Shown: positions 2,235-18,821 of the stretch, piece by piece
How the letters are laid out: the number at the start of each line of letters is the position of its first letter
Numbering within the stretch: the stretch's first letter is position 1
From: Mytilus californianus
Lineage: Eukaryota
Assembly: GCF_021869535.1 (NCBI RefSeq)
Contig: NW_026262690.1
Span: 83,948,001 to 84,012,000 of the forward strand
DNA: 64,000 nt
Direction: 5' to 3'
Notes under the pieces: model-generated
What the model saw: the letters and a program-made list of their open reading frames with translations, nothing else
Told to the model about the DNA's origin: nothing
Databases searched by the model: none
Translations under genes and position numbers: made by a program

Positions 2235-2708
2235 TTATTAATGAATGAGCTATTTAATGAGTTAACAAAACTTGATATAAACAAAGCATCTGGTATGGAT
2301 AATATAGGACCAAAAATTCTAAGATTAAGCGCCCCTGTTATTGCATCACCTCTCACATACATATTTAATCGAATGATAGATACTGGTATATATCCTTCTT
2401 TACTGAAGAATGCTAAGGTAACACCAGTTTTCAAGGATGGTGACAAGCTTTTAGCAACAAATTACAGACCTATATCTGTTCTTCCAACTTTATCAAAATT
2501 AATAGAAAGACATTTTTCTAATAATATGTACAAATACTTATCTAAACTTAAACTTTTACACCCTACACAATCTGGTTTCAGGCCGCAGCATTCTTGTCAA
2601 ACTGCACTTATTAATATCATTGACAAATGGTTGCAAGAAATGAATGATGGCAATTTAAACCTAGCAATTTTATTAGATTTTAAAAAAGCTTTTGATTTGG
2701 TAGATCAT
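2235..2708 (+). mobile_element. 5'-truncated CR1/L2-group LINE, left part (RT N-terminal region)
   Basis: KASGMDNI, NYRPISVLP, QSGFRP and DFKKAFDLVDH motifs; the exact 5' boundary is uncertain. Confidence 0.9.
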
Positions 2709-3102
2709 TGTAACACAATTGTGTTCCATACGATAATCATCAGGAAGTAACTACATACAGCAAAACCGAGACGATTACATGTAACCTTTAGACACTTAAT
2801 AACAATCTGTACGAATATTATTGACATATATCCTGCAGCCACTAAATGACCATGTCTACTGTGAAATAACATGTATCCGTCAGGGGTTAATTGCATAGTT
2901 TGACAATTAACCACAGACTAGTATTACTCCACAACCAGACTACTACGTAACCGGCCTACAGCTATGGACCGTTTGTATGGACCACTAGACTATATAAGAT
3001 CTCTCATTTTGGACTTCAAGACACAATTCGATCACACCAGAATTCGTCAGATCTCGGCCAGTGTCTCAGTGAAAAACATTTATTTGAACTTTTAATCGCT
3101 CT
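2709..3102 (+). repeat. LTR copy 1, 3'-truncated (394 of 464 bp); keeps TATA (2991-2997) but lacks AATAAA
   Basis: Matches 3703-4096 by eye; breaks off at ...TTTAATCGCTCT and joins env-tail sequence. Confidence 0.95.
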
Positions 3103-3103
3103 A

Positions 3104-3702
3104 AATGCCACGAACGATGGGTACCAAATGGTGACAACGCAAATGGTTGGGACAGAAGTACCTGATTCCAGAGAGAAGATTCCCTCTGCACCATTACTCA
3201 AAGACGATGCAAGACCGAAGACCGATGCTACCAGTCTCTTGAGAAAGATGTACCCAGAGCTAGATACGTCGACTACTTCGTAAAAGGACTGGATTGTAAA
3301 CCATACAACGTAGACGACCGAATCCACTAGCAGAAGACGAACCGTGTAAATAATTTTAAAAGTGACCCTATGAACTGTGTAAATAGAATTGTATAAACAT
3401 TTGTTCCTACCCAGTATTGAGGAACAACTTACTATGATGGTGATGGAAATAAAACATGAACTATGTATACCGAAATATTGAACTTATGATTAGAATGAAC
3501 TATGTGTAAATATATCCAGCTATTAGACTTGATGAATGTGATGAACTTATTATATCATGATATTGGACTCGTAGAACTTTATAAACTTTAGATATGTGGT
3601 GATGGTTACCGGAAACCTTACAATAAACTATTAGAATAACCTACAGGAAGAAAAATACCGTATTTTATTGAACTTTCGTTCTATTTTGGAGGGAGGGCAT
3701 TA
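3104..3702 (+). repeat. Duplicate of env C-terminal tail + 3' UTR + PPT (copy of 12039-12639)
   Basis: Near-identical to 12039-12639. Differences seen: TCG vs TCC (3271 vs 12207) and TTGTTCCTACCC vs TTGCGTTCTTACCC (2-bp indel plus substitution). Confidence 0.95.
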
Positions 3703-4166
3703 TGTAACACAATTGTGTTCCATACGATAATCATCAGGAAGTAACTACATACAGCAAAACCGAGACGATTACATGTAACCTTTAGACACTTAATAACAAT
3801 CTGTACGAATATTATTGACATATATCCTGCAGCCACTAAATGACCATGTCTACTGTGAAATAACATGTATCCGTCAGGGGTTAATTGCATAGTTTGACAA
3901 TTAACCACAGACTAGTATTACTCCACAACCAGACTACTACGTAACCGGCCTACAGCTATGGACCGTTTGTATGGACCACTAGACTATATAAGATCTCTCA
4001 TTTTGGACTTCAAGACACAATTCGATCACACCAGAATTCGTCAGATCTCGGCCAGTGTCTCAGTGAAAAACATTTATTTGAACTTTTAATCGCTCTTTGA
4101 ATACTTGTAAATTAAGCAATAAATTCTAATTGACAAGTATTAGTTAACTTAATTGACTTCGCAACA
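3703..4166 (+). repeat. LTR copy 2 (full 464 bp; functional 5' LTR)
   Basis: TGTAACA...GCAACA; TATATAA at 3985-3991; AATAAA at 4118-4123; no differences from 12640-13103 seen by eye. Confidence 0.97.
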
Positions 4167-4176
4167 TAAGTCAAAT

Positions 4177-4185
4177 TGGTGCCGT
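4177..4185 (+). promoter_or_regulatory. Primer-binding-site-like sequence TGGTGCCGT
   Basis: TGG start 10 nt after the LTR end; 9-nt complementarity to the typical metazoan tRNA-His 3' end (8 nt to tRNA-Phe). Confidence 0.6.
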
Positions 4186-4239
4186 TCAGACCAAGGATCA
4201 ACCAGGACTTCTAACCACTATACGATAGAAAGGAACCAC

Positions 4240-4275: not shown

Positions 4276-5430
4276 ATGGATAACCAAGATACTTCTATGT
4301 CAGCACAAAAAGTAGAATTAGCTTTCAATGGTGTCGCGAACGAACTTCATGGGTTAAGGGAAGTAGTTACTATTCAAGGCGATGTAGCCGCCGAACTAAA
4401 AGGGTTAAAATCAGCCATTTGTTCTCAAAACGTAGTTCAAGGAATAACGCCTTTTGAAGGTAATACGAAAGATTTTAAAGCCTGGATTAAGTCAATTGAA
4501 AAATATGCTTTACTTTTTAATGATAGGGATCGAATTAAGGAAATAGCTTTTCAAACATGTAAAGGGGCTTGTTCAGATTACATACAAAGGTATTTAAGAG
4601 ACCATCGGGATACCACTTGGGAACAATTAAAAAAAGAATTAACTTCAAGGTTTGGAGAAATTACGGACCCTCAACATGCGTCAACTCTTTTGAGACAATT
4701 AAAACAAAAAGGGGACGAGTCTGTTCAAATTTATGCAGAAAATTTATTGAATTTGGCAAATGAGGCATATTCAGATTTAGATGGAAATAATGAAGCTATA
4801 GAAAGGGAACTCGTAGGCATTTTTATAGATGGTTTGGCTCATTCTTATTTAAAAATGAAATTAATGAGAGAAAACCCAGCTACTTTTTCTTTGGCAGTTA
4901 AAAGTGCAATGACTGAACAAAATTTGAGAAAAAGATTTACTTTAAGAACGGAAAGGGTAGACGAACCAAGGTATAAAACAATAAGACCAATGACATTAAC
5001 TAGACCACGACGGACTGAACCTTTGAACTCTCATGAACCAATGGAAATTGATCATTATCGTGATGCAAAACGTTGTTATTCTTGTGGTAAAGTAGGTCAT
5101 GTATCACGTGATTGTCGTTCTGGGGGAAATTTGAGACAAATTAATGCCGTAGAAATGCAAACATATCACGGAAATTCGGGTAGAAACAGGGAAATTAATT
5201 GTTATTCTTGTGGTAAGGTAGGACATATAGCACGAGATTGTCGTTCTAGGGGAACATATAGACAAGTAAATGCAGTTGAAACGCAACAATATCAAGGGAA
5301 TTCGGGAAGAAATAATGAGATAATTTGTTATCAGTGTAATCAACGGGGACATATTAGGCCAAATTGCCCAAATAGAAAACCTAGGACTGTTAACATGGTA
5401 GAAAACTGGGGTGTATATCAGGAAAACTAA
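4276..5430 (+). CDS. gag: Gag (capsid-like region plus three CCHC zinc knuckles)
   Basis: First ATG at 4276 within ORF 4153-5430; retrotransposon-gag-like core (TWEQLKKELTSRF), PMEID motif, three CX2CX4HX4C knuckles. Confidence 0.93.
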   Translation: MDNQDTSMSAQKVELAFNGVANELHGLREVVTIQGDVAAELKGLKSAICSQNVVQGITPFEGNTKDFKAWIKSIEKYALLFNDRDRIKEIAFQTCKGACSDYIQRYLRDHRDTTWEQLKKELTSRFGEITDPQHASTLLRQLKQKGDESVQIYAENLLNLANEAYSDLDGNNEAIERELVGIFIDGLAHSYLKMKLMRENPATFSLAVKSAMTEQNLRKRFTLRTERVDEPRYKTIRPMTLTRPRRTEPLNSHEPMEIDHYRDAKRCYSCGKVGHVSRDCRSGGNLRQINAVEMQTYHGNSGRNREINCYSCGKVGHIARDCRSRGTYRQVNAVETQQYQGNSGRNNEIICYQCNQRGHIRPNCPNRKPRTVNMVENWGVYQEN

Positions 5431-8400
5431 AGCGCTCTTGTCACGTTGAAGCCGGTGATAAGAGTAAAATTGAAAAGAAATTACCTACTTATTCTATAAA
5501 TGTTGCAGGAGCTCCAAATTCAACTTTAATCAAAATTCAAAATCAAAGATATAGAGCTCTCGTAGATTCAGGCGCTAGTGTTTCTTTGATACACAAAAGA
5601 ATTTTTGAAACTTTGAGGGATAAACCAAAATTACTAAAGAAAACGGCTAACTTACAGTCCGTAAATGGGGGGTCTTTACATGTAGAAGGTTGTGCAAACC
5701 TTACATTTAAAATAGGTAGTACAAAAGTTACTCAATTATTTTATGTTGTTAGAGACATGAACAGAAATGTTATTTTAGGAAAAGATTGGTTAGTACAAAA
5801 TGGAGTTAGGTTATATTTTGATTTAGGATGTTTAAGAATTCAAAAAAATTATGTTCCATTAGAAGAAGATATTAATGTGGCTTCAATTGTAAGATTAACC
5901 GTAAATGCCGTATTAAAACCACAAACAATTAATGTTTGTCCCGTAGGCCTTAAGAACAATCCAAGTTTTGGAAGTACTAAATTGTTAGAAATCTCACCTG
6001 TAGCTTCAGGGTATGTTAGTACAGAACCAGGCTTAATGATAAGTAATACGGTGGTTAATTTTAATAAAAATAGGAAGTTTCCTTTGATGATTGTAAATAA
6101 CACAAACAAATCAATTAGGTTAAGAAGAGGTTGTGTAGTAGGTAAGGCTTCTCATTTAGAAGAAATAAATTTAGTCAATGTTAATCAATCACAAGAAACT
6201 TCGGAACTCAAAAAGTTAGATGAGTCTGAAATAAGTGTACCACAAGAATTTAAAAAGGATATACTTAGAATGTTAAGGGATAATGAAGATATTTTTGCAA
6301 CTTCAGACAAAGATTTGGGGTGCACTGATACAGTGCAAATGACTATTGATACCGGGGATCATCCACCTATCAGATTAAAACCCTATAGGGCCCCTCTCAA
6401 TCAGAGAAAAATAATAGATAAGGCTATTGAGGAATTATTAGAGGCTAATATTATTAGGAAATCTAGGTCGGCTTGGGCTGCGCCTATTATTATCGTTTCT
6501 AAAAAGGATAAAACATCAAGGATGTGCGTGGACTATCGCAGCCTGAACGCAGCCAGTAAAATTTATTCCTTTCCGTTGCCCCTGATTGATGACTTGCTTG
6601 CTTCAGTAGGTAAAGCCAAAGTAATGACATCACTTGATTTAAAGTCAGGATATTATCAGGTAAAGGTCAAAGAGTCGGATAAGGAAAAGACTGCTTTTGT
6701 ATGTCACAAGGGATTATTTGAGTTCAATGTATTGCCATTTGGTCTCGCCTCAGGGCCCAGTTTATTTAGTGAATTAGTTACAGAGGTACTACAAGGGTTA
6801 GAACATTTTTCAACTGCTTACATAGATGACATTTTGATATTTTCCGAAACAGTGGAAGAACATTTAGGCCACATACAACAAGTTTTTGATAGATTAAGAC
6901 AACACAAACTAAAATTAAAATTGAAAAAATGTAATTTTATGCAAGATGAAACTAATTACTTAGGCTTTATAATAAGTAAAGATGGACTAAAACCGGATCC
7001 TGAAAAGGTTAAGGCCATTCAAGGCATGAAAGCTCCCTCGAATGTCAGGGAAGTTAGAGGATTAATAGGTTGTTTGAGTTATTATCGCAGATTTGTACCT
7101 TCATTTTCAAAAATTGCGGAGCCTATAGTTGCCTTAACTAGGAAAAACAAGGTTTTTGATTGGACCAACACTTGTCAAGTTGCTTTTGAAAAATTAAGGG
7201 GTGAATTAGTGAAAGTTCCCTTATTGGCATATCCAGATTTGAATAAACCATATGTGCTTTACACGGACGCTAGTGATAATTGTGTAGGTGCTTGTTTAAC
7301 GCAATTACAAGCCAGCCCAATAGAGGGTGAAAATGAAGTTGAAAGACCAATTTACTTCCTATCTCATAAATTGAGTGATACGCAAACACGTTGGTCAACC
7401 ATTGAAAAAGAAGCCTTTGCGATTCATTATGCCTTACAAAAATTGAATCATTATTTGTATAATGCTGAATTTGTGATAAAAACAGATCACAAACCTTTGA
7501 AATACATTCTGGAATCACCAATGCAAAATAAGAAAATTCAACTGTGGGCATTGAACATAACGGGTTATAACTGTACTATTCAGTATATTCCAGGGCCCCA
7601 AAACGTGTGTGCAGATTTTATGTCTAGATTACCTTCAGATGAAAAACGAAACGAAAATCCAGATCCGTATCCGGATATTAGTGACAATACTTACGAAATT
7701 AATGTGATTAATTCAAATAGATTTCATTTTTCTGATTATGCAAATAATGATAAATTAGTTGAAGATATTCCAGAAAAAGAAAATTTTCAGTTTGAAGAAT
7801 TTGATATGTCAATCGAACAAATGAAAGACAAAACATTACGTGAGTTAAAGGAACAACTTGTAAGCGATAAGGTACCCGAGGCAGTGCAAAACAAGTACAT
7901 CATAATAGATGACATACTTTATTACATTTCAAATGTAGATAATGATCCTATTATAAGGTTGTACATACCATCTCATATAAAACAAGCAGTTGTAGAACAA
8001 TATCATGATAAGAATGGGCACATGGGCATTGACAAAACATTTGATTCCATTCGTCAAAAATATTTTTGGCCAAACATGTTTAAGGAATTGTATAATTATG
8101 TCACTACTTGTGTACCTTGTCAATCACGCAATTTACAAAAGGTTAGAGCGCCAATTCAGGAAACAAAAATTCCGCCTTATCCTTTTTGTCATGTAGGGGT
8201 AGATTTGAGTGGACCGTATCCAACTACCATGTCAGGTAACAGGTACATTATAGGATTTATCGATTTATACTCAGGGTGGCCAGAAGCTTTTAGTGTCGCA
8301 ACAAAAAGCACTGACAATGTTGCACATCTTTTGATTGAAGAAATTACTTCAAGGCATTCTGGGATTCAAATTCTAACAAGTGATAACGGAGGGGAAAACT

Positions 8401-9524
8401 GTTCTAAGGCTATGGAGGAAGTTTGTAAGGAACTTAATATAAAGCATATTAAAACTTCATTCTATCACCCTCAGGGTAATGCTAAAATAGAAAGATTTCA
8501 TAGAACATTACATGATGTTTTGTCAAAATTAATAGAAGATCATTCCACAACTTGGGATTTATACTTGAACCAAGCTTTAGCAGCAATTAGATTCAATATC
8601 AATGAGTCCACCCAACTTTCACCTTTTTATGCATTATATAACAGGGATCCAGTTTTACCTTTAGATAACATTTTACAGCCTAGGAGAAAATACAATGGGG
8701 AAGAATATCATAAAATTGCCTTGCAACAACAACATAAATCATTTATGTTGGTTCATAAAACCATGAAAAAATCTAAGCAGAAACAAGCTAAGTACGCAAA
8801 CAAACATAGCAAAGATATAAGGTTTGAGGTAGGAAACCCAGTTTTTTATAAAAATCATAGAAGGGCAAGCAAACTTTCAAAAAAATGGACTCCGTACTAT
8901 AGGATTATAGAACAAACTTCACCTGTTAGTTTTATTTTAAAAAATCAGTTAGATGGGACAACCACAAAGGCTCATGCTGAACAAATTCGTTTGGCTAAGT
9001 TAGATTGGGAAATTCCTAACAACAATCAAGGTAGGACATTACGTAAAGCTGCATATGTAGTTCCCATTGAGTCACAATCAGAAGACTCCTCTGATGATGA
9101 AAGCATAGATTCAGACACTCCGTTAAATCAAATTGCAAAAAGATATAAAAAAGAAAGGGAAAATTCTGATGAAGAAGATGATATACCATTAATGGAGTTA
9201 TCTAAAAAATTAAGGGGGAAGAAAATTTTCTCAGAACAAAATAATGTCAATAATAGTGAAATAGAAAGTGATGATCAAATCATAAAAGAAGAAGTAGAAA
9301 ATTCGTCTACTAATTCTGAAGTTTCTGACATTGATGATAAAATGTCCAGCAGTCACTCTTCGCCTGTTGAATCTGAAATTTCCGACATGGAAGATAACAT
9401 GTCTGTAAACCGGGTTAAAATAAAAAATAATCGGAAACCAACTGATAATGGGGCTAACGAAACAAAATTGGTAACCAAGGAACATGTACAAAATTTAGTA
9501 AGGGCTTTAATAGGTATTATGTAG
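5394..9524 (+). CDS. pol: Pol polyprotein: aspartic protease, RT, RNase H, integrase with GPY/F-like module and acidic tail
   Basis: Frame open from 5394 with LVDSGASVS protease motif upstream of the tracked ORF start; RT (RMCVDYR, LPFGL, YIDD); RNase H (YTDAS, EKEAFA, TDHKPL); IN HHCC (HDKNGH...CVPC) and DDE core. Confidence 0.97.
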   Translation, partial: HGRKLGCISGKLKRSCHVEAGDKSKIEKKLPTYSINVAGAPNSTLIKIQNQRYRALVDSGASVSLIHKRIFETLRDKPKLLKKTANLQSVNGGSLHVEGCANLTFKIGSTKVTQLFYVVRDMNRNVILGKDWLVQNGVRLYFDLGCLRIQKNYVPLEEDINVASIVRLTVNAVLKPQTINVCPVGLKNNPSFGSTKLLEISPVASGYVSTEPGLMISNTVVNFNKNRKFPLMIVNNTNKSIRLRRGCVVGKASHLEEINLVNVNQSQETSELKKLDESEISVPQEFKKDILRMLRDNEDIFATSDKDLGCTDTVQMTIDTGDHPPIRLKPYRAPLNQRKIIDKAIEELLEANIIRKSRSAWAAPIIIVSKKDKTSRMCVDYRSLNAASKIYSFPLPLIDDLLASVGKAKVMTSLDLKSGYYQVKVKESDKEKTAFVCHKGLFEFNVLPFGLASGPSLFSELVTEVLQGLEHFSTAYIDDILIFSETVEEHLGHIQQVFDRLRQHKLKLKLKKCNFMQDETNYLGFIISKDGLKPDPEKVKAIQGMKAPSNVREVRGLIGCLSYYRRFVPSFSKIAEPIVALTRKNKVFDWTNTCQVAFEKLRGELVKVPLLAYPDLNKPYVLYTDASDNCVGACLTQLQASPIEGENEVERPIYFLSHKLSDTQTRWSTIEKEAFAIHYALQKLNHYLYNAEFVIKTDHKPLKYILESPMQNKKIQLWALNITGYNCTIQYIPGPQNVCADFMSRLPSDEKRNENPDPYPDISDNTYEINVINSNRFHFSDYANNDKLVEDIPEKENFQFEEFDMSIEQMKDKTLRELKEQLVSDKVPEAVQNKYIIIDDILYYISNVDNDPIIRLYIPSHIKQAVVEQYHDKNGHMGIDKTFDSIRQKYFWPNMFKELYNYVTTCVPCQSRNLQKVRAPIQETKIPPYPFCHVGVDLSGPYPTTMSGNRYIIGFIDLYSGWPEAFSVATKSTDNVAHLLIEEITSRHSGIQILTSDNGGENCSKAMEEVCKELNIKHIKTSFYHPQGNAKIERFHRTLHDVLSKLIEDHSTTWDLYLNQALAAIRFNINESTQLSPFYALYNRDPVLPLDNILQPRRKYNGEEYHKIALQQQHKSFMLVHKTMKKSKQKQAKYANKHSKDIRFEVGNPVFYKNHRRASKLSKKWTPYYRIIEQTSPVSFILKNQLDGTTTKAHAEQIRLAKLDWEIPNNNQGRTLRKAAYVVPIESQSEDSSDDESIDSDTPLNQIAKRYKKERENSDEEDDIPLMELSKKLRGKKIFSEQNNVNNSEIESDDQIIKEEVENSSTNSEVSDIDDKMSSSHSSPVESEISDMEDNMSVNRVKIKNNRKPTDNGANETKLVTKEHVQNLVRALIGIM
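5421..5464 (+). promoter_or_regulatory. -1 programmed ribosomal frameshift signal: G GAA AAC slippery site plus downstream stem-loop
   Basis: Heptamer 5421-5427 directly before the gag stop; pol is in the -1 frame and open from 5394; 7-nt spacer, then a 10-bp stem CTCTTGTCAC (5435-5444) / GTGATAAGAG (5455-5464) with one G-U pair. Confidence 0.8.
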
Positions 9525-9628: not shown

Positions 9629-10132
9629 ATGGCAGACAATGAAGAAAGCTTTGCCCAGCTAGAATCCCTCTATTTGTGGAAACTATTACCTGATAATTTA
9701 TGGTGGGACATATATGTAAAATTTAAGATCAATTATTTCCGGGAAATACTAGATAGAAAGAGAAGGGAACCTCTATTTAAGGAATTCCACGCTATACAGA
9801 AGCTTATTAACCTGTCGGATCCAATTATAATTGACAATTATTGTGGTTTACCCACAAAATTCGCAGAAATAATTGGACGCCGGAAACAATTTGCCGAAAT
9901 ACATAACTTATCCTATCAGGAGCATCTTAGGAAGTGGACGGTGGAGAACTTCAAAGCCATTGGATGGTTAAAACGATCCAATCGCTTTGGGGTTTACCAC
10001 CAAGAAGTGATTCTAAACAAGGCAAGGAAAATGCACCGGATACGCATTTTCGATCTGATCATTAAATTTGAGACTGTGAAGGAAAACAACCAAACATTTT
10101 ATTCAGGACTATCATATGAATTCCAAAATTGA
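9629..10132 (+). CDS. Accessory ORF of unknown function (167 aa, basic, no evident TM segment) between pol and env
   Basis: Uninterrupted ORF with agaATGG start, 1 nt after a strong acceptor (TTATTCTCATTTTACAG, AG at 9626-9627); lies inside an otherwise intact element. Confidence 0.75.
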   Translation: MADNEESFAQLESLYLWKLLPDNLWWDIYVKFKINYFREILDRKRREPLFKEFHAIQKLINLSDPIIIDNYCGLPTKFAEIIGRRKQFAEIHNLSYQEHLRKWTVENFKAIGWLKRSNRFGVYHQEVILNKARKMHRIRIFDLIIKFETVKENNQTFYSGLSYEFQN

Positions 10133-10202
10133 TAAAGGCCAGATAAATAAAATATATTATGATAATTTATATATGTATCATTATTTTTAGGGAGAACCAG
10201 TG

Positions 10203-12218
10203 ATGAAGTGGTGGTGGTTCTCACTTATTCTTTTTGGCTTAACCAGCCAATTCATTGTCAAGGAAAATGTCATGTTTCAAAAAATTAAGGAAATATCAAC
10301 CACAAGGTCAAATTGGCTCATTACTTTTGTCGTAGACTTGGATCCTTTTGAATTATTTCTTAATAAAATAGAACAAGACTTGGGCAAGGCTTTTCTCGCT
10401 ACACAAAAAGTTCACACAATTTCTATGTTTTACACCCCAGAAAAAAAACACATTTTGGCTACTATCTTAAGTCTACAAAGGGAGGTTGAAGGATTAAATC
10501 GGACAAAAGATTATTTACAATCACAATTCAATGATTACCAATCTTTATATTACGACGAAACGGCAAAGTTTAAAACTAAACGTAGCTTATTTCCTATTAT
10601 AGGCAAAGCATTAAGTTTTTTATTTGGTACTGTATCAGACAGCGACCTGTCAAAAATTCGAAGAAATATCAAAACTTTGGCACAAAATCAAGATGCAATT
10701 CGTCATATTGTTCAAGATGGGTTAACTATCTTAAACACTACACAAACACATGTTTCTGAAAATAGACACAAGGTTAATGAGTTGATTGAAAGTGTTCAAG
10801 ATCTTGGAAATAGACTTCAAACTTTTGCTACGGATTTAGAAAAACAAATTGAAGTTATGGGAAGTTATTTACAAGCTTATTTGCATATGGACATGATAAT
10901 AGGTGAAATAAAGGACCTTATGAATATAGCCGGGGATTATTTAAACCATTTGCAATTACAACTAAACATGTTGTCCTTAGGACACATGTCACCCAGTCTT
11001 ATATCACCCGGTAATTTACGAGTATTATTGACTGACATAAAACGACGACTACCGGCGACATTAAAGATACCTGGTGACGAAGTTAAAGATATTTGGAATT
11101 TTTATAAATTTTTGACCTGTAGTACAGTTTTGGACGAAAACAAAATAATCATTATCATTACGTTACCATTACTAGATATAAGAGACACTTATGAAATTTA
11201 TAAGATTCACAACTTGCCTGTTCCTACTACGATAACTGATAAACAATCTGACTCGAGCAATATGGTTGCTCAGTATGAATTAGAAGCAGAAGTTATTGCT
11301 GCAAACCAAGAAAAAACTAAATATATGCTGCTAAATACCAATGAAATTGACAAGTGTTCCAATCCTTTAGTTAATTTTTGTGAAATTAAAAGTCCAGTTT
11401 ATCCAGTTAATTTAAGTAAATTATGTATCATAGCCTTATTTGCCAATAAAGAAAATTGGAAAACAAGATGTACAGTGAAAGTACGACCAAACACAATTTT
11501 GCCTATGGCAACTTATTTGACCGATAGTATGTGGGCAGTTACAACCATTAATGAATTTAGAATCACTATTAGATGTGATGACAATACAAACATGTTGACG
11601 GATCAGATAATTAATCCTCCTACCACTATAATTAATTTAAAGCGAACTTGTACCGCTACGAGTGATCATTTGACCTTATTACCTACTTATCAAATGGAAA
11701 GTACATTTTTAACAGAAAAAACGTTCGAAAGATTCTTAAATACCTTTCAAGTACTGAATACAAGTTTATGGGAACCCTTTCATGCTGCTTTGCCAAATTT
11801 TACAAAGCTTGAACTACCAAGAGAACTAAAGGCGATTAAACAAATTCCTATGAACGCTTTGATTGAAAAACTTAGAAATTTAAGGGGAATTGAAAACGAT
11901 TTTGAATTTCCAAATTGGGGAGTAGGTTTATCCCTGGGTTTGGGTGCGATATTCATTGGAATAGCTATATTTTTGTACTGTAAGTTTTTTAGAAACAAAT
12001 CTTGGTTAGCCAAAAAGAAAGGTGTGAGTTCGGGTTCTAATGCCACGAACGATGGGTACCAAATGGTGACAACGCAAATGGTTGGGACAGAAGTACCTGA
12101 TTCCAGAGAGAAGATTCCCTCTGCACCATTACTCAAAGACGATGCAAGACCGAAGACCGATGCTACCAGTCTCTTGAGAAAGATGTACCCAGAGCTAGAT
12201 ACGTCCACTACTTCGTAA
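10203..12218 (+). CDS. env: Envelope glycoprotein, class I fusion protein of the F type (baculovirus F / gypsy Env-like)
   Basis: Signal peptide MKWWWFSLILFGLTSQ; basic cleavage site KFKTKR then fusion-peptide-like SLFPIIGKALSFLFG; heptad-rich and Cys-rich ectodomain; N-glycosylation sequons; C-terminal TM and cytoplasmic tail; acceptor TTATTTTTAG at 10181-10190. Confidence 0.9.
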   Translation: MKWWWFSLILFGLTSQFIVKENVMFQKIKEISTTRSNWLITFVVDLDPFELFLNKIEQDLGKAFLATQKVHTISMFYTPEKKHILATILSLQREVEGLNRTKDYLQSQFNDYQSLYYDETAKFKTKRSLFPIIGKALSFLFGTVSDSDLSKIRRNIKTLAQNQDAIRHIVQDGLTILNTTQTHVSENRHKVNELIESVQDLGNRLQTFATDLEKQIEVMGSYLQAYLHMDMIIGEIKDLMNIAGDYLNHLQLQLNMLSLGHMSPSLISPGNLRVLLTDIKRRLPATLKIPGDEVKDIWNFYKFLTCSTVLDENKIIIIITLPLLDIRDTYEIYKIHNLPVPTTITDKQSDSSNMVAQYELEAEVIAANQEKTKYMLLNTNEIDKCSNPLVNFCEIKSPVYPVNLSKLCIIALFANKENWKTRCTVKVRPNTILPMATYLTDSMWAVTTINEFRITIRCDDNTNMLTDQIINPPTTIINLKRTCTATSDHLTLLPTYQMESTFLTEKTFERFLNTFQVLNTSLWEPFHAALPNFTKLELPRELKAIKQIPMNALIEKLRNLRGIENDFEFPNWGVGLSLGLGAIFIGIAIFLYCKFFRNKSWLAKKKGVSSGSNATNDGYQMVTTQMVGTEVPDSREKIPSAPLLKDDARPKTDATSLLRKMYPELDTSTTS

Positions 12219-12624
12219 AAGGACTGGATTGTAAACCATACAACGTAGACGACCGAATCCACTAGCAGAAGACGAACCGTGTAAATAATTTTAAAAGTGA
12301 CCCTATGAACTGTGTAAATAGAATTGTATAAACATTTGCGTTCTTACCCAGTATTGAGGAACAACTTACTATGATGGTGATGGAAATAAAACATGAACTA
12401 TGTATACCGAAATATTGAACTTATGATTAGAATGAACTATGTGTAAATATATCCAGCTATTAGACTTGATGAATGTGATGAACTTATTATATCATGATAT
12501 TGGACTCGTAGAACTTTATAAACTTTAGATATGTGGTGATGGTTACCGGAAACCTTACAATAAACTATTAGAATAACCTACAGGAAGAAAAATACCGTAT
12601 TTTATTGAACTTTCGTTCTATTTT

Positions 12625-12634
12625 GGAGGGAGGG
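12625..12634 (+). promoter_or_regulatory. Polypurine tract GGAGGGAGGG (second copy at 3688-3697)
   Basis: Purine run ending 5 nt before the LTR start. Confidence 0.85.
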
Positions 12635-12639
12635 CATTA

Positions 12640-13103
12640 TGTAACACAATTGTGTTCCATACGATAATCATCAGGAAGTAACTACATACAGCAAAACCGA
12701 GACGATTACATGTAACCTTTAGACACTTAATAACAATCTGTACGAATATTATTGACATATATCCTGCAGCCACTAAATGACCATGTCTACTGTGAAATAA
12801 CATGTATCCGTCAGGGGTTAATTGCATAGTTTGACAATTAACCACAGACTAGTATTACTCCACAACCAGACTACTACGTAACCGGCCTACAGCTATGGAC
12901 CGTTTGTATGGACCACTAGACTATATAAGATCTCTCATTTTGGACTTCAAGACACAATTCGATCACACCAGAATTCGTCAGATCTCGGCCAGTGTCTCAG
13001 TGAAAAACATTTATTTGAACTTTTAATCGCTCTTTGAATACTTGTAAATTAAGCAATAAATTCTAATTGACAAGTATTAGTTAACTTAATTGACTTCGCA
13101 ACA
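12640..13103 (+). repeat. LTR copy 3 (3' LTR, 464 bp)
   Basis: Same sequence as 3703-4166; AATAAA at 13055-13060; followed by TSD TCAT. Confidence 0.97.
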
Positions 13104-14440
13104 TCATGACATTCTTTGCTTAAAGCTTGAAATTTATGGATTTAGTGAGGCTACTGTTAGTTTTTTCAAGTCATACCTGAATAACAGAAAACAGCAGGTA
13201 AACATTTGTAATGTTTACTCTAAACAACAACATGTAAAATTTGGTGTACCCCAAGGTTCTATACTTGGTCCTCTATTGTTTGTGCTATTTATAAACGACC
13301 TTCCCTTATGCATTGAAAATTGTGAAACAGACCTATATGCTGATGACACCACTCTTCAGAAATCAGGGAAAAACATAGAAAATATACATGATGATGTTCA
13401 AGAAGATTTATACAGGGTTGAAGAGTGGTGCAAAATGAATAGCATGTTCATTAATGCAAACAAAACAAAATGTTTAGTTACTGGAACAAAGCAGAAACTA
13501 TCAATTCAGACTTATCAACCAAACTTGATAATAAATTCAAAAGTATTACAAAATTCTTCATGTGAAAAATTATTAGGTGTTAAAATTGACAGCACACTTA
13601 GCTGGAGAAATCAAATTGACCAAGTTTGTGCTAATATATCATCCAGAATATACCTTCTTTCTAAAATAAAGAAATTTTTAGATATAAATGCAAGGAAAAC
13701 ATATTACAATGGGTATATTCTGCCCCTGATTGACTACTGCTGTATTATTTGGGGTGAATGTAAAAATGAAGGGATAACAAGAATTTTAAAACTCCAAAAA
13801 AGGGCAGCAAGATTAATTCTAGATGCAGATCCTTTATCCCCCTCAGCCCCCTTATTTAAAGAACTTGGGTGGATGACAGTTGACAATAGAATCAAATACC
13901 ACAAATATTTACTTCTATATAAATGTATGCGTATGGAAGCTCCAATGTACCTAGTTCAAAGTTTAAACTGAAATCAGATAATAATCCTTACTCCTTGAGA
14001 GGTGTCACTCAAGGTAATATGATAGTTCCTAAACCAAAAGCTGAGCTATTTAAGAAATCTTTTGTTTATTCTGGATCAGTGTTATGGAATGGACTACCAC
14101 ACAAAATGCGTAAAGCTCAAAACGCTTATACTTTTAAACAAAGTATCAAGAAGTACTTAACACAGTCCTGATAAGATTATGTTTTCTACAATGTATTTGT
14201 ATATTCTTTTATTTTTATTTTTATTTGATTTTTTGACTACATGTGCATCTTGAACAGCCTTATATCTTATCATGTTAGTAATATTACATTGAACTAATTG
14301 ACTGTAAATTAACTATGTGTAAATATCTGTTTTTGATTGTATTGTAATTTGTATGTGAGGGCCTCAGGGAAGATTAGTCTATTGTAACTAACTGAGTTTA
14401 CCCTCTTTAAATAAAGAATTTATTATTATTATTATTATTA
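13104..14440 (+). mobile_element. Same LINE, right part: rest of RT, 3' UTR, AATAAA and (TTA)n tail
   Basis: Removing the LTR element and one TCAT restores DLVDH-DILCLKLEIYG in frame; GVPQGSILGP and YADD motifs; one frameshift near 13953; AATAAA at 14410-14415 and TTA repeats to 14440. Confidence 0.92.
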
Positions 14441-14832: not shown

Positions 14833-17248
14833 CTGTTCTTTAAAAGGGTAAATGCAAGTTTTAAAAAACATGTTTATAAAGTATTTCAATAGTATTGCGA
14901 AATAGTTGTTTACGAATGCATTATTACTCAGGCATATGTTACGTTTATGTAATATTCCAAATTTAAATATAACCTTAATTACATTCTCAGTAAATAATCC
15001 ATAGGTATAAAGTGGAGATCTACCTTGATGTATATGTCTCTGAGATGTATCGGGGTATGTGAGGTGAATAACCTGTTCATATACATGTAATGTGAACAGT
15101 TCGAAACAAGTTCAAGGATTTAAAATATTTAATGCAATTCACAACTTTGTATAATTTATGTTAATGAGATGATGACTTTTCTTGATAGTATCGGCTTTGT
15201 TTTGATTGGGGAATTTATTTATGAAACATAAAATATTTTACAGTCTGGAAATTTTCTTAGGTCGCTTGAGTATGTCAGACATATGAAAACCTTTACACGA
15301 ACCATCTTTATAACTTTATAACTATTGATTGTGGTTAGCTTAACATCCTGATGGATTTTTTTTTTAGACATATGCAGGACGACCAGGAGATATTACAAAT
15401 TTCTGCTGCATTTGTTTCACTAATGGGTTCCATACTTGAAAGTTGGAGAAGTCTTTTGGATGTAAAACTTATCACAATATAAAGATTTTTCAAGTTTTGT
15501 TTTGTATACGTGATTATAAAATGTTATTTTGACGCTCTATGTATTTACATTTTAAATTGCTAATTAATGCATTTGATTACATGTTCAATGTTACGACAAC
15601 ATGTTGATCCTCAAAGAACACAAAAAAGCTGTCATTCTGTTAATTTAAGTTTTAAAATAACTATACATTTGAAATAAATTTAGGAGAAATTACTCCTACC
15701 GTTTATACCGTTTATACCAAATAAATCCGCTATAGTACGATTCTGGAAAATTGGTCGACGGGGATGAAGGGCTGGAATTTAGACCGTTATGGTTAAAAAG
15801 TTTCCTTATAGTAGTTCAAATACAACCCTTCAAAGATTTACTGCAAGGGTTCTTTCATGTGCAAATTAGCGACACTCTTCTTTGATGGGACTTTGGATTC
15901 ACTGTTCCAATCTCGAGGACGTGTTTGCATATTTGTACATTCCACAAATTTGGATGACCCGGCAGCAGACACAGCTCGCACAATGTAGGACTTTGAACGA
16001 CTAACGGCAATCCCCTCGTACATAATTAAAACTGTAAAACTAACAGCAGAAGGGAAGGGGAAATCATTTATGAGAGAGAATCGGGAACAAACGGATTAAA
16101 TTTATTTTTTCACAGTGCGAACATTTAAAGTATAAAGGGCTCCTACGCATCGGTCAATTTTATTTTACTCCAATAAAGCTTCAAATTAAAAACATTTAAT
16201 TTTAAATAAACTCATCATAGATACTAGGCTTAACATTGTGTACAAAAGACTCATCACTGACGCTCGAATAATAAAAGCAAAATAAAAGCAAAATAAAGTA
16301 CAAGTTTGAGAGCATTGAAGACCCAAAATTCCGAAACTACATCAACCACATATCCTTTCTGTTCACGTTCGTATTAACCTTCATACTACAATGTGTTCTT
16401 TTCTTTTACGTATTGTTTTTACTACATCTGGATATATTAATTTTGAGTAGTCTCTTCTAGCATTGATTTTAGTATTTCATATTGATTTTACATTCTTCCT
16501 TTTTCTAGTTTTAAGGTATTCTATGTCCGTTGCCGAGATAATTTAATATAATATATTTTCCACTATTGATTTAAAAATTCGAATTTTACATGAAATATGA
16601 ATATTTGTATTAGCAAATACGATTTAAATTATATAGTTTCACATTAAACGTTGAATTTAAAATATATACAGATAAAACATACTTTTGAGCTATACTAAAA
16701 AAGAGGGACGAAAGATACCAGAGGGACAGTCAAACTCATAGATCAAAAACAAACTGACAACGCCATGGCCAAAAATAAAAAGACAAATAGACAAATTATA
16801 GTACAGATAAAATTAGGACAAATTCTCTTAAATTCTTCGATAACTTGTATCTTTTTTCTACAAATCATTACTATCCTTTCTAAAGCAAATACAAGACAGT
16901 ACAATCAACTCTTTAAAAACTAAATTAATTTAAATGTTTAAAAATAAATTTATTTCATTTAAATTCTGAGGTCACGACACATTTACCTGATGGTTTCATT
17001 TTCCATGTCTTACTTATAAATTTCTTTTATAACAAAACATCTTTGTACACCTGGTATTCGAACAATCGACATCAAACTTATCACACCTCTGTATATATAA
17101 TAATATGATCACTTTAAATTTCTCACAATGTGGTCAGAAGTAGTAACTCTGGACAAGTAAACATTAAGGTCTTATAAGGTCAAAAGTCTGGTAAATAAAA
17201 TATATAGAATTCACCGAGGCGTGACGAGTCTGTACATACACAGTAGCA

Positions 17249-17257
17249 ATGGAACAG
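17249..17257 (+). CDS. Candidate first coding exon of paralogue A (ATG GAA CAG|GTAAGA)
   Basis: gcaATGG start and a strong phase-0 donor that fits the phase-0 start of exon 26362; about 9 kb away and not otherwise supported. Confidence 0.3.
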
Positions 17258-18074
17258 GTAAGACACATTTTATTTATCCCGTTATTTCAGACATACTTAA
17301 TTATAGAGATCAATTCATCATATCATTTGACAAAGAAATCACACAAAATTTCATTTTAACAAGAAGAAAAACCTAAAGTCTTTGAATATTATATTTGATA
17401 TATAGATAAGTATTTCACATCGTGATTTGCGTTTCTGAATTTTTTTGCATGTACTGTACTGTGAGCACTGGGAGGTCTGCCATAAACCATCCAGTTATTG
17501 AATTTTACGGATATTTCAAGTAGACATAGGAAATGTAAAACAAATATTCATCAAAAGCAAAATAAAAAAACGGGAAAGTGAATATCTACACTTATAGATT
17601 AAAAAACAGTTTAGTTAAAGTGCATTCAAGAGATACAACAGAAGTATTTAAGTGGTAATAGTTTATTCATGTTGGATAACCATACAGCACATCTTTTCGT
17701 TTTAAATGTTCACCGTCTCATTGCAAATCCCGATTGTGTTCAATATACATAAAAATTATGATTACTTAAAATATTCGACATTCAGTTTAAGGTGCAAAGA
17801 GCGTGATTAGTAAGCGCCGGTAAATCGGATAAAGATGTAGGTTCAATTTCCCCTAATTTGTTTCATTCACAGGGTCAAAATGTAAAAGTTGCCAAATGCT
17901 AATGAAATTGGAATATTAAAGAGTCTTTATACAGTATTTGAAATATTTTCAACATATTACATATTTCCATAACTTAAATATTGTGAACGCTACATATTCC
18001 TGTTGAAGGCATCCGGCTTTAGGTGGGGTTCGTATTGCTCATTCTTTATTTTTCTATGTTTTTGTAAACTGTTT

Positions 18075-18652
18075 GTTTTTAGCTCACCTTTCCAAAGGAA
18101 ATGTGAGCTTTTGCCATCACTTGGCGTCGTCGTCCGTCCGGTGTAAACTATTTCAAACATCTTCTCCTCTGAAACAACTGAACCAATTCCAACCAAACTT
18201 AAGCTGAATGAACCTTATCGTATCTAGAATAAAGTTTGTGTTTAATTTTCTGTTTCGTCAAAAAACATGGCCGCCATGGCTTAAAATAGAACATAGGGGT
18301 AAAATGCAGTTTTTGGCTTATATCTCAAAAACTAAAGCATTTAGAGCAAATCTGACATGGGGTAAAACTGTTCAAAACTTGGGCTGAATGAGTTTTAGAG
18401 TATCTAGTATACATTTTGTATTTTATTTCCTTGTACGTCAAGAAACATAGCCACTATGGCTAAAATGGAACATAGGGGTAAAATGCTTTTTTTTTTTGCT
18501 TTTGTGAAAATATGACAGATACAAAGAACATTTAAATGGCATTTTTAAGCCACTCATTAATATATATTGAAAAGCAAAAATAATCATTGATGAAAGATTT
18601 AAGCAAAAAATTACAGGTGAGCGATTCAGGCTCTTGAGAGCCTCTTGTTTGG
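18075..18652 (+). mobile_element. Helentron-associated non-autonomous element (HINE/DINE-like) with internal tandem units
   Basis: TTTTTAGCTCACC start, GTCC-type microsatellite, subterminal GGTGAGCG inverted repeat, 3' hairpin AGGCTC-TTGA-GAGCCT followed by CTTGTTT. Confidence 0.65.
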
Positions 18653-18821
18653 TATTTTTCTTCTTTTTTTTTGCCTTGGCGTTGTCAGTTTATTTTCGAC
18701 TTTCGAGTTTGAATGTTCCTTTGGTATCTTTCGTCTCTCTTTTGATACGAAATTGCAAATTTTACATGTTTTTGTGAACTTTTGCATCGGAGTACGTAGC
18801 TACACAAGATAAATAATTTAA

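Follow-up and report, generated by a model that had tools for sequence, protein, structure and literature searches.

Late domains of the motif classes reported here have been described in orthoretroviruses, with PTAP and YPxL in HIV-1 p6, YPDL in EIAV p9 and LYPSL in RSV (PMC3705266; this and all other articles are cited for the accessible parts of their text). The motif carrier there is a myristoylated Gag lattice, whereas in the element described below it is a membrane-anchored trimeric fusion protein. Foamy viruses (Spumaretrovirinae) are similar to this element in that their Gag has no membrane-targeting signal, their release depends on Env and their Env alone gives rise to subviral particles (PMC3705266). 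However, they belong to another family and use another fusogen, and the CCHC nucleocapsid of the element is a further difference. In addition, prototype foamy virus has its PSAP late domain in Gag, whereas the element has both motifs in Env. Among natural transmembrane proteins, Toxoplasma GRA14 has PTAP and YPxnL in its cytosolic tail (PMC8700025); unlike Env, it is a parasite vacuole protein and not a fusogen. In engineered spikes, an ESCRT-recruiting motif (EABR or p9) on the tail of a class I protein leads to enveloped particles without Gag (PMC10121106). Motifs in the West Nile envelope are also on record (PMC3766686). For errantiviruses, a review describes any use of ESCRT as an open question (PMC3383448), and a survey of metazoan elements describes their transmission as elusive outside Drosophila (PMC13524379).

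The DNA analysed here, a stretch of 64,000 nucleotides from Mytilus californianus (contig NW_026262690.1, positions 83,948,001 to 84,012,000), is called the window. It contains an intact-looking, very recent Ty3/gypsy (Metaviridae) LTR retrotransposon with an F-type env, all parts of which lie on the + strand. The full 5' LTR (3703..4166, TG...CA) and the 3' LTR (12640..13103), each recognised by its identity to the other, show no differences (465/465 bases identical). The PBS (4177..4188) begins 10 bases past the LTR, the PPT (12625..12634) was read from the sequence, and the flanks provide the TSD, TCAT, with its left copy at 2705..2708 and its right copy at 13104-13107. The gag gene (4276..5430, 384 aa) encodes a Ty3-type capsid and three CCHC knuckles. 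It is overlapped at its end by pol (5394..9524), which is in the -1 frame, so that gag and pol would be joined by a frameshift at the overlap. The pol order is PR-RT-RH-IN, the protease motif DSG is present, and the element matches the Pfam families PF03732, PF19259, PF00078, PF17917, PF17921 and PF00665. Paired LTRs, TSD, PBS, PPT, capsid type and pol order are thus all those of Ty3/gypsy. The third gene, env (10203..12218, 671 aa), encodes an F-type class I fusion protein.

Because the family matches Mollusca_Bivalvia_Mcal_errantivirus_1 in the supplement of PMC13524379, the element is already known: it is the one catalogued as Mcal_errantivirus_1 by Chary and Hayashi. The match extends to the species label, the Env type, the PBS 12-mer with its 10-base offset and the 465-base LTR, and the two are further alike in their gag-pol-env order, F-type Env and multicopy state. 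Placement as an ‘ancient errantivirus’ would rest on this catalogue match and on the mollusc host. In genome G000, 10 full-length env copies at 99-100% identity were found among 74 matches, with other families at 41-44%. The best protein match, P0001, has a rounded identity of 100%, is labelled Mytilus californianus and differs from the window in the tail at two non-motif residues. As a side observation, env 5' fragments (residues 1-169), about 20 in number, are repeated in tandem at G000:C24:26549458-26580103 with a period near 1.45 kb.

The 5' end of the element (2709-3702) is rearranged. A truncated LTR copy (2709..3102), consisting of the first 394 bases and 100% identical to 3703-4096 and 12640-13033, is followed after a 3-base overlap by a copy of 12036-12639, which comprises the end of the env tail and the 3' UTR (3100..3702), and then by the full LTR. 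This duplicate includes a second YQMV (3122), PSAP (3182) and YPEL (3251), all outside any env frame, and is not present in the sister copy L038. The arrangement looks like the result of a template switch in reverse transcription. Location of the env tail within the LTR was considered and rejected, the 5' match being a duplication. The insertion target is a LINE-like RT frame, and RT-like ORFs flank the element on both sides (2241-2708 and 13104-13971). An inverted repeat at 16699-18743 (91 bases, 84% complementary, 1,863 bases apart) is possibly the remnant of a DNA transposon.

Between pol and env lies an ORF of 167 aa (9629..10132), which is open in the sister copies L037 and L038. It has no Pfam match, its atlas matches reach at most 0.83 and its single-sequence model has a pLDDT of 35.7, results that speak neither for nor against a role as a matrix-like adaptor. 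Several Mytilus families have one or two ORFs of 140-175 aa in this interval, again with no family match: besides 9629-10132 in the window, these are L031:7082-7555, L033:6018-6533 and 6588-7106, L035:7159-7581 and L036:6635-7153. Element L047 is without such an ORF. Several of the pol-env ORFs start with LP-E or LP-N, which we take to recall the start of an F-box. Just 5' of the env ATG, a pyrimidine tract followed by AG (10170-10195) is a likely splice acceptor for env. In a raw RNA run, of which about 6% was covered, 48 reads were obtained; none of them showed a splice joint, and their number is too low for conclusions on the splicing or level of env. None of the listed records containing the sequence is of RNA.

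Env has a signal peptide, a basic KTKR at residues 124-127 followed by a fusion-peptide-like stretch, and a TM segment at 573-591, which is the only strongly hydrophobic segment and precedes the tail motifs. The structural model (AlphaFold2, mean pLDDT 74.2) matches baculovirus F (E 1e-22) and RSV F (1.2e-9). The window Env itself did not match Pfam Baculo_F, which is matched by 27 of its 44 aligned relatives. With its signal peptide, basic cleavage site, C-terminal TM and predicted F-type fold, the window Env is, going by the model, F-type.

The cytoplasmic tail of 80 aa (11976..12218) contains nine lysines and is predicted to be disordered, with pLDDT below 50 at 597-656 and 661-671. YQMV (12057..12068, Y619), PSAP (12117..12128, residues 639-642) and MYPEL (12183..12197, with YPEL at 12186-12197, residues 662-665) all lie C-terminal to the TM and in the env frame, where the initial annotation had placed the three motifs. 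PSAP is a predicted ligand of the TSG101 UEV domain, and MYPEL a predicted ligand of the ALIX/HD-PTP V domain, of the YPx1L type. Canonical motifs in a cytosol-facing, disordered segment are what is expected of late domains. In 100,000 shuffles of the family tail from P0001, two non-motif residues off the window, PSAP appeared in 0.4%, YPxL in 1.4%, both in 0.002% and any YxxPhi in 48%; the occurrence of PSAP and YPEL is thus beyond chance, but that of YQMV is not. An atlas search with TM and tail gave 0.86 at best, values to be read as leads only. Two further occurrences had been missed by the initial annotation, namely a YPDL in Pol at 7230 and the whole-tail duplicate at 3100-3702.

Conservation in homologous Env tails had been put forward in the initial annotation as the check on its proposal, and PSAP and YPxL pass it strongly. 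The first set started from 87 matches, 57 of which had a detectable TM. Eight of these were dropped for tail length or fused gene models, and the remaining 49 yielded 42 tails non-redundant at 60%. P[S/T]AP was found in 13 of the 42 (0.28 in shuffles) and YPxL in 24 (0.65). SAP preceded YP in 19 tails (0.07 in shuffles), and the opposite order was seen in 3. The patterns were fixed on this set, and 122 new representatives were taken from the best 150 of 2,856 matches. From these, 32 were removed: 20 lacked the C-terminal part and 6 the TM, 5 had short tails and 1 belonged to the same family. Within this selection the patterns of the first set were replicated on 90 further tails, with P[S/T]AP in 18 (0.36 in shuffles) and YPxL in 28 (0.90); for the 58 tails below 33% identity, the numbers were 10 and 16.

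As the two sets are not fully independent, they were pooled into 124 tails, non-redundant at 55% and about 25-45% identical to the window Env. YPxL occurs in 48 of them (shuffle mean 1.6, maximum 6), P[S/T]AP in 28 (0.8, maximum 4), either motif in 66 (2.4) and both in 10 (0.01), where the null consists of shuffled tails rather than host transmembrane tails and may be too weak. With no motif specified beforehand, a scan of 62,239 short patterns ranked YP.L, LYP.L, LYP, PSAP and SAP as its top five. PSAP is present in 21 of the pooled tails, as against 2 for its 11 letter permutations altogether, and for YPxL, leucine precedes the tyrosine in 40 of 71 sites. ASAP is enriched as well (11/124 tails vs 0.34 in shuffles). 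These variants may be inert, given that the ASAP of Tacaribe virus is reported to be dispensable and not linked to TSG101 (PMC3640512). The position of the motifs within the tail varies between relatives. A scan of viral contigs with the Env alignment confirmed none of 34 candidate stretches. A figure in PMC12992720 that aligns Drosophila Env tails may bear on the range of the motifs.

In an alignment of 43 tails with a mean identity to the query of 18%, Y662 is kept in 31, P663 in 35 and L665 in 27 tails; in the PSAP motif, P642 is kept in 40, S640 in 26, A641 in 24 and P639, the lowest, in just 13, numbers to be read with the caveat that aligning such variable tails can draw like residues together. 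The motifs are thus conserved above the surrounding tail sequence, as is expected of late domains, though not universally. The codons TCT GCA CCA are unchanged across three Mytilus families. For the serine of the motif, some elements use TCT and others AGT, and the constraint therefore acts at the protein level. YQMV fared differently: its proposed role as a YxxPhi signal is not supported, the tyrosine being kept in 7 of 43 tails and YxxPhi outside YP sites occurring in 29 of 124 tails vs 43.6 in shuffles. Alignment columns 619-624, which overlap YQMV, show a weak E-[M/L]-V-[P/S] tendency (Val in 22/43), which is possibly another sorting signal. PPxY was rejected as a family feature, with 4 of 42 tails in the first set and 2 of 90 in the second vs 1.0 expected.

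An ectodomain tree with a midpoint root was calculated from 107 of the 124 sequences, the other 17 having partial or over-long ectodomains. Among its rows, [P/A][S/T]AP is present in 35 and a YPxL-type motif in 50, with 21 rows having both; 43 rows have neither. The last number holds even when ASAP and looser YP forms are counted, and whole subclades are without the motifs. Both motifs occur on either side of the root, and each requires at least 19-23 changes. Co-evolution of the two was rejected, since no co-variation was detected on this tree. The motifs are thus common yet labile, and they are not essential in every lineage.

Gag served as a control. The initial annotation had described it as having neither a late-domain motif nor a Gly2 signal, and this was confirmed for 4276-5430, where P[S/T]AP, PPxY and YPx1-3L are all absent. 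The protein starts with MDNQ, without Gly2, and the 176 bases 5' of the gag start contain no ATG. Related Gags were collected from 104 matches, 11 of which were dropped (same-family copies, chimeric gene models and two knuckle-only matches). This left 53 sequences non-redundant at 60%, which were selected by sequence similarity, irrespective of env. They contain no P[S/T]AP, one YPxL (1.5 in shuffles), two PPxY (1.0) and no Met-Gly start. Expressed as density, there are 56 YPxL in 12,047 tail residues vs 1 in 17,137 Gag residues. The elements with a readable Env tail that also have a Gag frame of 235 aa or more are those of the window, L033, L047 and L049; the motifs were confined to Env in 4 of 4 cases, L033 being counted by the variants ATAP and HYPVL. 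Disordered Pol C-termini had motifs in 0 of 6 cases. The Pol YPDL (7230-7241) falls within the Pfam match to RT/RNase H, is common to L033, L035 and L036, and is probably structural.

None of the orthoretroviral characters of Gag (matrix domain, myristoylation, late domain) was found in the window Gag. The initial annotation had contrasted the placement of the motifs in Env and not in Gag with orthoretroviruses. The placement stands, but the contrast was overdrawn, since this Gag is of the Ty3/gypsy type and gypsy Gag is not myristoylated (PMC3383448). We thus rejected the absent Gly2 as a special feature; it is ordinary for gypsy Gag and in line with the absence of Met-Gly starts among the related Gags. 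Gags of env-less elements are described as consisting of capsid and nucleocapsid only (PMC7828637). Because Ty3/gypsy Gag is of this kind and gypsy Gag is unmyristoylated, there was no transfer of the motifs from Gag to Env. More likely, they are part of the Env module, and the budding signal was either brought in by the captured Env or evolved within it.

On the host side, UEV matches and ALIX-V-type genes number two each in genome G000. The human UEV domain can be aligned to Mytilus TSG101 (P0091) without any gap, and the mussel protein keeps T58, Y63, Y68, N69, M95, P139, V141 and F142, which we take to be the residues of the PTAP pocket. One exon of the ALIX-like gene starts with FYNDL, presumably the place of the pocket phenylalanine of the V domain. 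By these residues, both host pockets look intact. Two UEV-domain exons lie 76 kb apart in G000:C46:5722367-5801583, TSG101 and a likely paralogue, and short proteins with UEV plus RING were seen. A complex prediction for the Mytilus TSG101 UEV and Env 622-671 scored 0.00, which is no answer and has no bearing either way.

The explanation that we favour, with a probability of roughly 0.55 and judged from sequence, is that Env recruits ESCRT and thereby provides late-domain function to a matrix-less capsid. It starts from direct observations: the motifs lie in a tail predicted to be disordered, they are enriched across the family and absent from related Gags, and the genes for the host partners are present. 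PSAP and (L/I/M)YPxL on the F-type tail would bind host TSG101 and ALIX, which we consider highly probable. Clustered on Env trimers, the motifs would bring in ESCRT-III, and scission would take place either at the plasma membrane or into multivesicular bodies. Given binding, release rather than degradation is the probable outcome. A capsid-nucleocapsid Gag with no late domain or myristoyl anchor could not bud alone, and capsids assembled in the cytoplasm would be captured at Env sites through a putative link; no such capsid-Env link was identified. Budding would accordingly be driven by Env, and Env-only vesicles may be formed, the two alternatives put forward in the initial annotation.

Published experiments bear on this in both directions. 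The tail of GRA14 can stand in for a viral late domain and recruits TSG101, but its motifs were dispensable for uptake, the function tested, which counts against our explanation (PMC8700025). EIAV p9 on a spike tail supported vesicle release that reached roughly one tenth of that with EABR, in favour of it; HIV p6 with both its motifs gave no detectable vesicles, which counts against it (PMC10121106). Those vesicles are synthetic, and the native viral late domains used were weak (p9) or inactive (p6, VP40).

It is unlikely, in our estimate, that the motifs bind ESCRT but sort Env to multivesicular bodies for lysosomal turnover, with capsids leaving the cell in another way. Turnover of this kind would limit surface fusogen and cell-cell fusion. 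The ALIX-binding motif YPx3L drives ubiquitin-independent lysosomal sorting of PAR1 and P2Y1 (PMC3341166, PMC4907476), the nine tail lysines could be ubiquitinated, and the many intact relatives without both motifs are as expected for a tuning signal. However, the pairing of a TSG101-type with an ALIX-type motif, mostly with SAP before YP (19 vs 3 of 42 tails), copies viral late-domain arrays, and the related Gags provide no other late domain.

We regard it as decidedly improbable that the motifs are kept for a non-ESCRT ligand or are generic in invertebrate membrane-protein tails, and so say nothing special about budding. The first proline is the least conserved position (13/43), [S/T]AP lacking this proline is common (53 vs 28 of 124 tails), and the motif counts were set against shuffles, not host tails. 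Still, the two top motifs of the scan are the two canonical direct ESCRT ligands, down to the hydrophobic residue before YP and the leucine at +3.

Much the same low credence applies to capsid-free, fusogenic Env vesicles as the main product, comparable to subviral particles of foamy viruses or HBV, with capsids being enveloped only seldom. Gag has no evident membrane-targeting or Env-binding domain, foamy Env alone does release subviral particles (PMC3705266), and the splice-acceptor-like tract 5' of the env ATG would permit Env expression without Gag. Against this, ancient lineages have retained env alongside gag-pol (PMC13524379), and the genome has at least 10 full-length, near-identical copies of env, which fits a part for Env in the spread of the element. 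Chance or DNA-level constraint, for which the unchanged TCT GCA CCA codons might speak, is barely conceivable and largely refuted by the 30- to 35-fold excess over shuffles, the use of both AGT and TCT for the serine and the varying tail position.

PMC13524379 analyses ectodomains only; its accessible main text has no mention of ESCRT, late domain, PSAP, cytoplasmic or budding, and a term search of its supplements found PSAP only inside gB ectodomains. Our literature search, with most subscription journals beyond its coverage, found no report of late domains in errantivirus Env. The late-domain motifs of the Env tail are thus a family-wide feature, apparently undescribed, of a known class of elements. 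With a signature of two motifs in Env that is absent from Gag, the question of how errantiviruses leave the cell becomes testable.

If Env recruits ESCRT as we favour, it would be a natural case of a fusion protein that buds by itself, and it would be explained how a retrotransposon confined to the cell could give rise to budding particles through a single gene capture, without the need to first evolve a matrix domain. More tentatively, and with some doubt on our part, invertebrate F-type errantiviruses may have become infectious when Env was captured as fusogen and budding engine in one gene, whose product recruits TSG101 and ALIX with its tail, envelops a matrix-less Ty3 capsid and also sheds Env-only fusogenic vesicles. 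Among retroids this would be a third strategy of envelopment, next to those of ortho- and spumaretroviruses, and self-budding glycoproteins would be its engineered equivalent.
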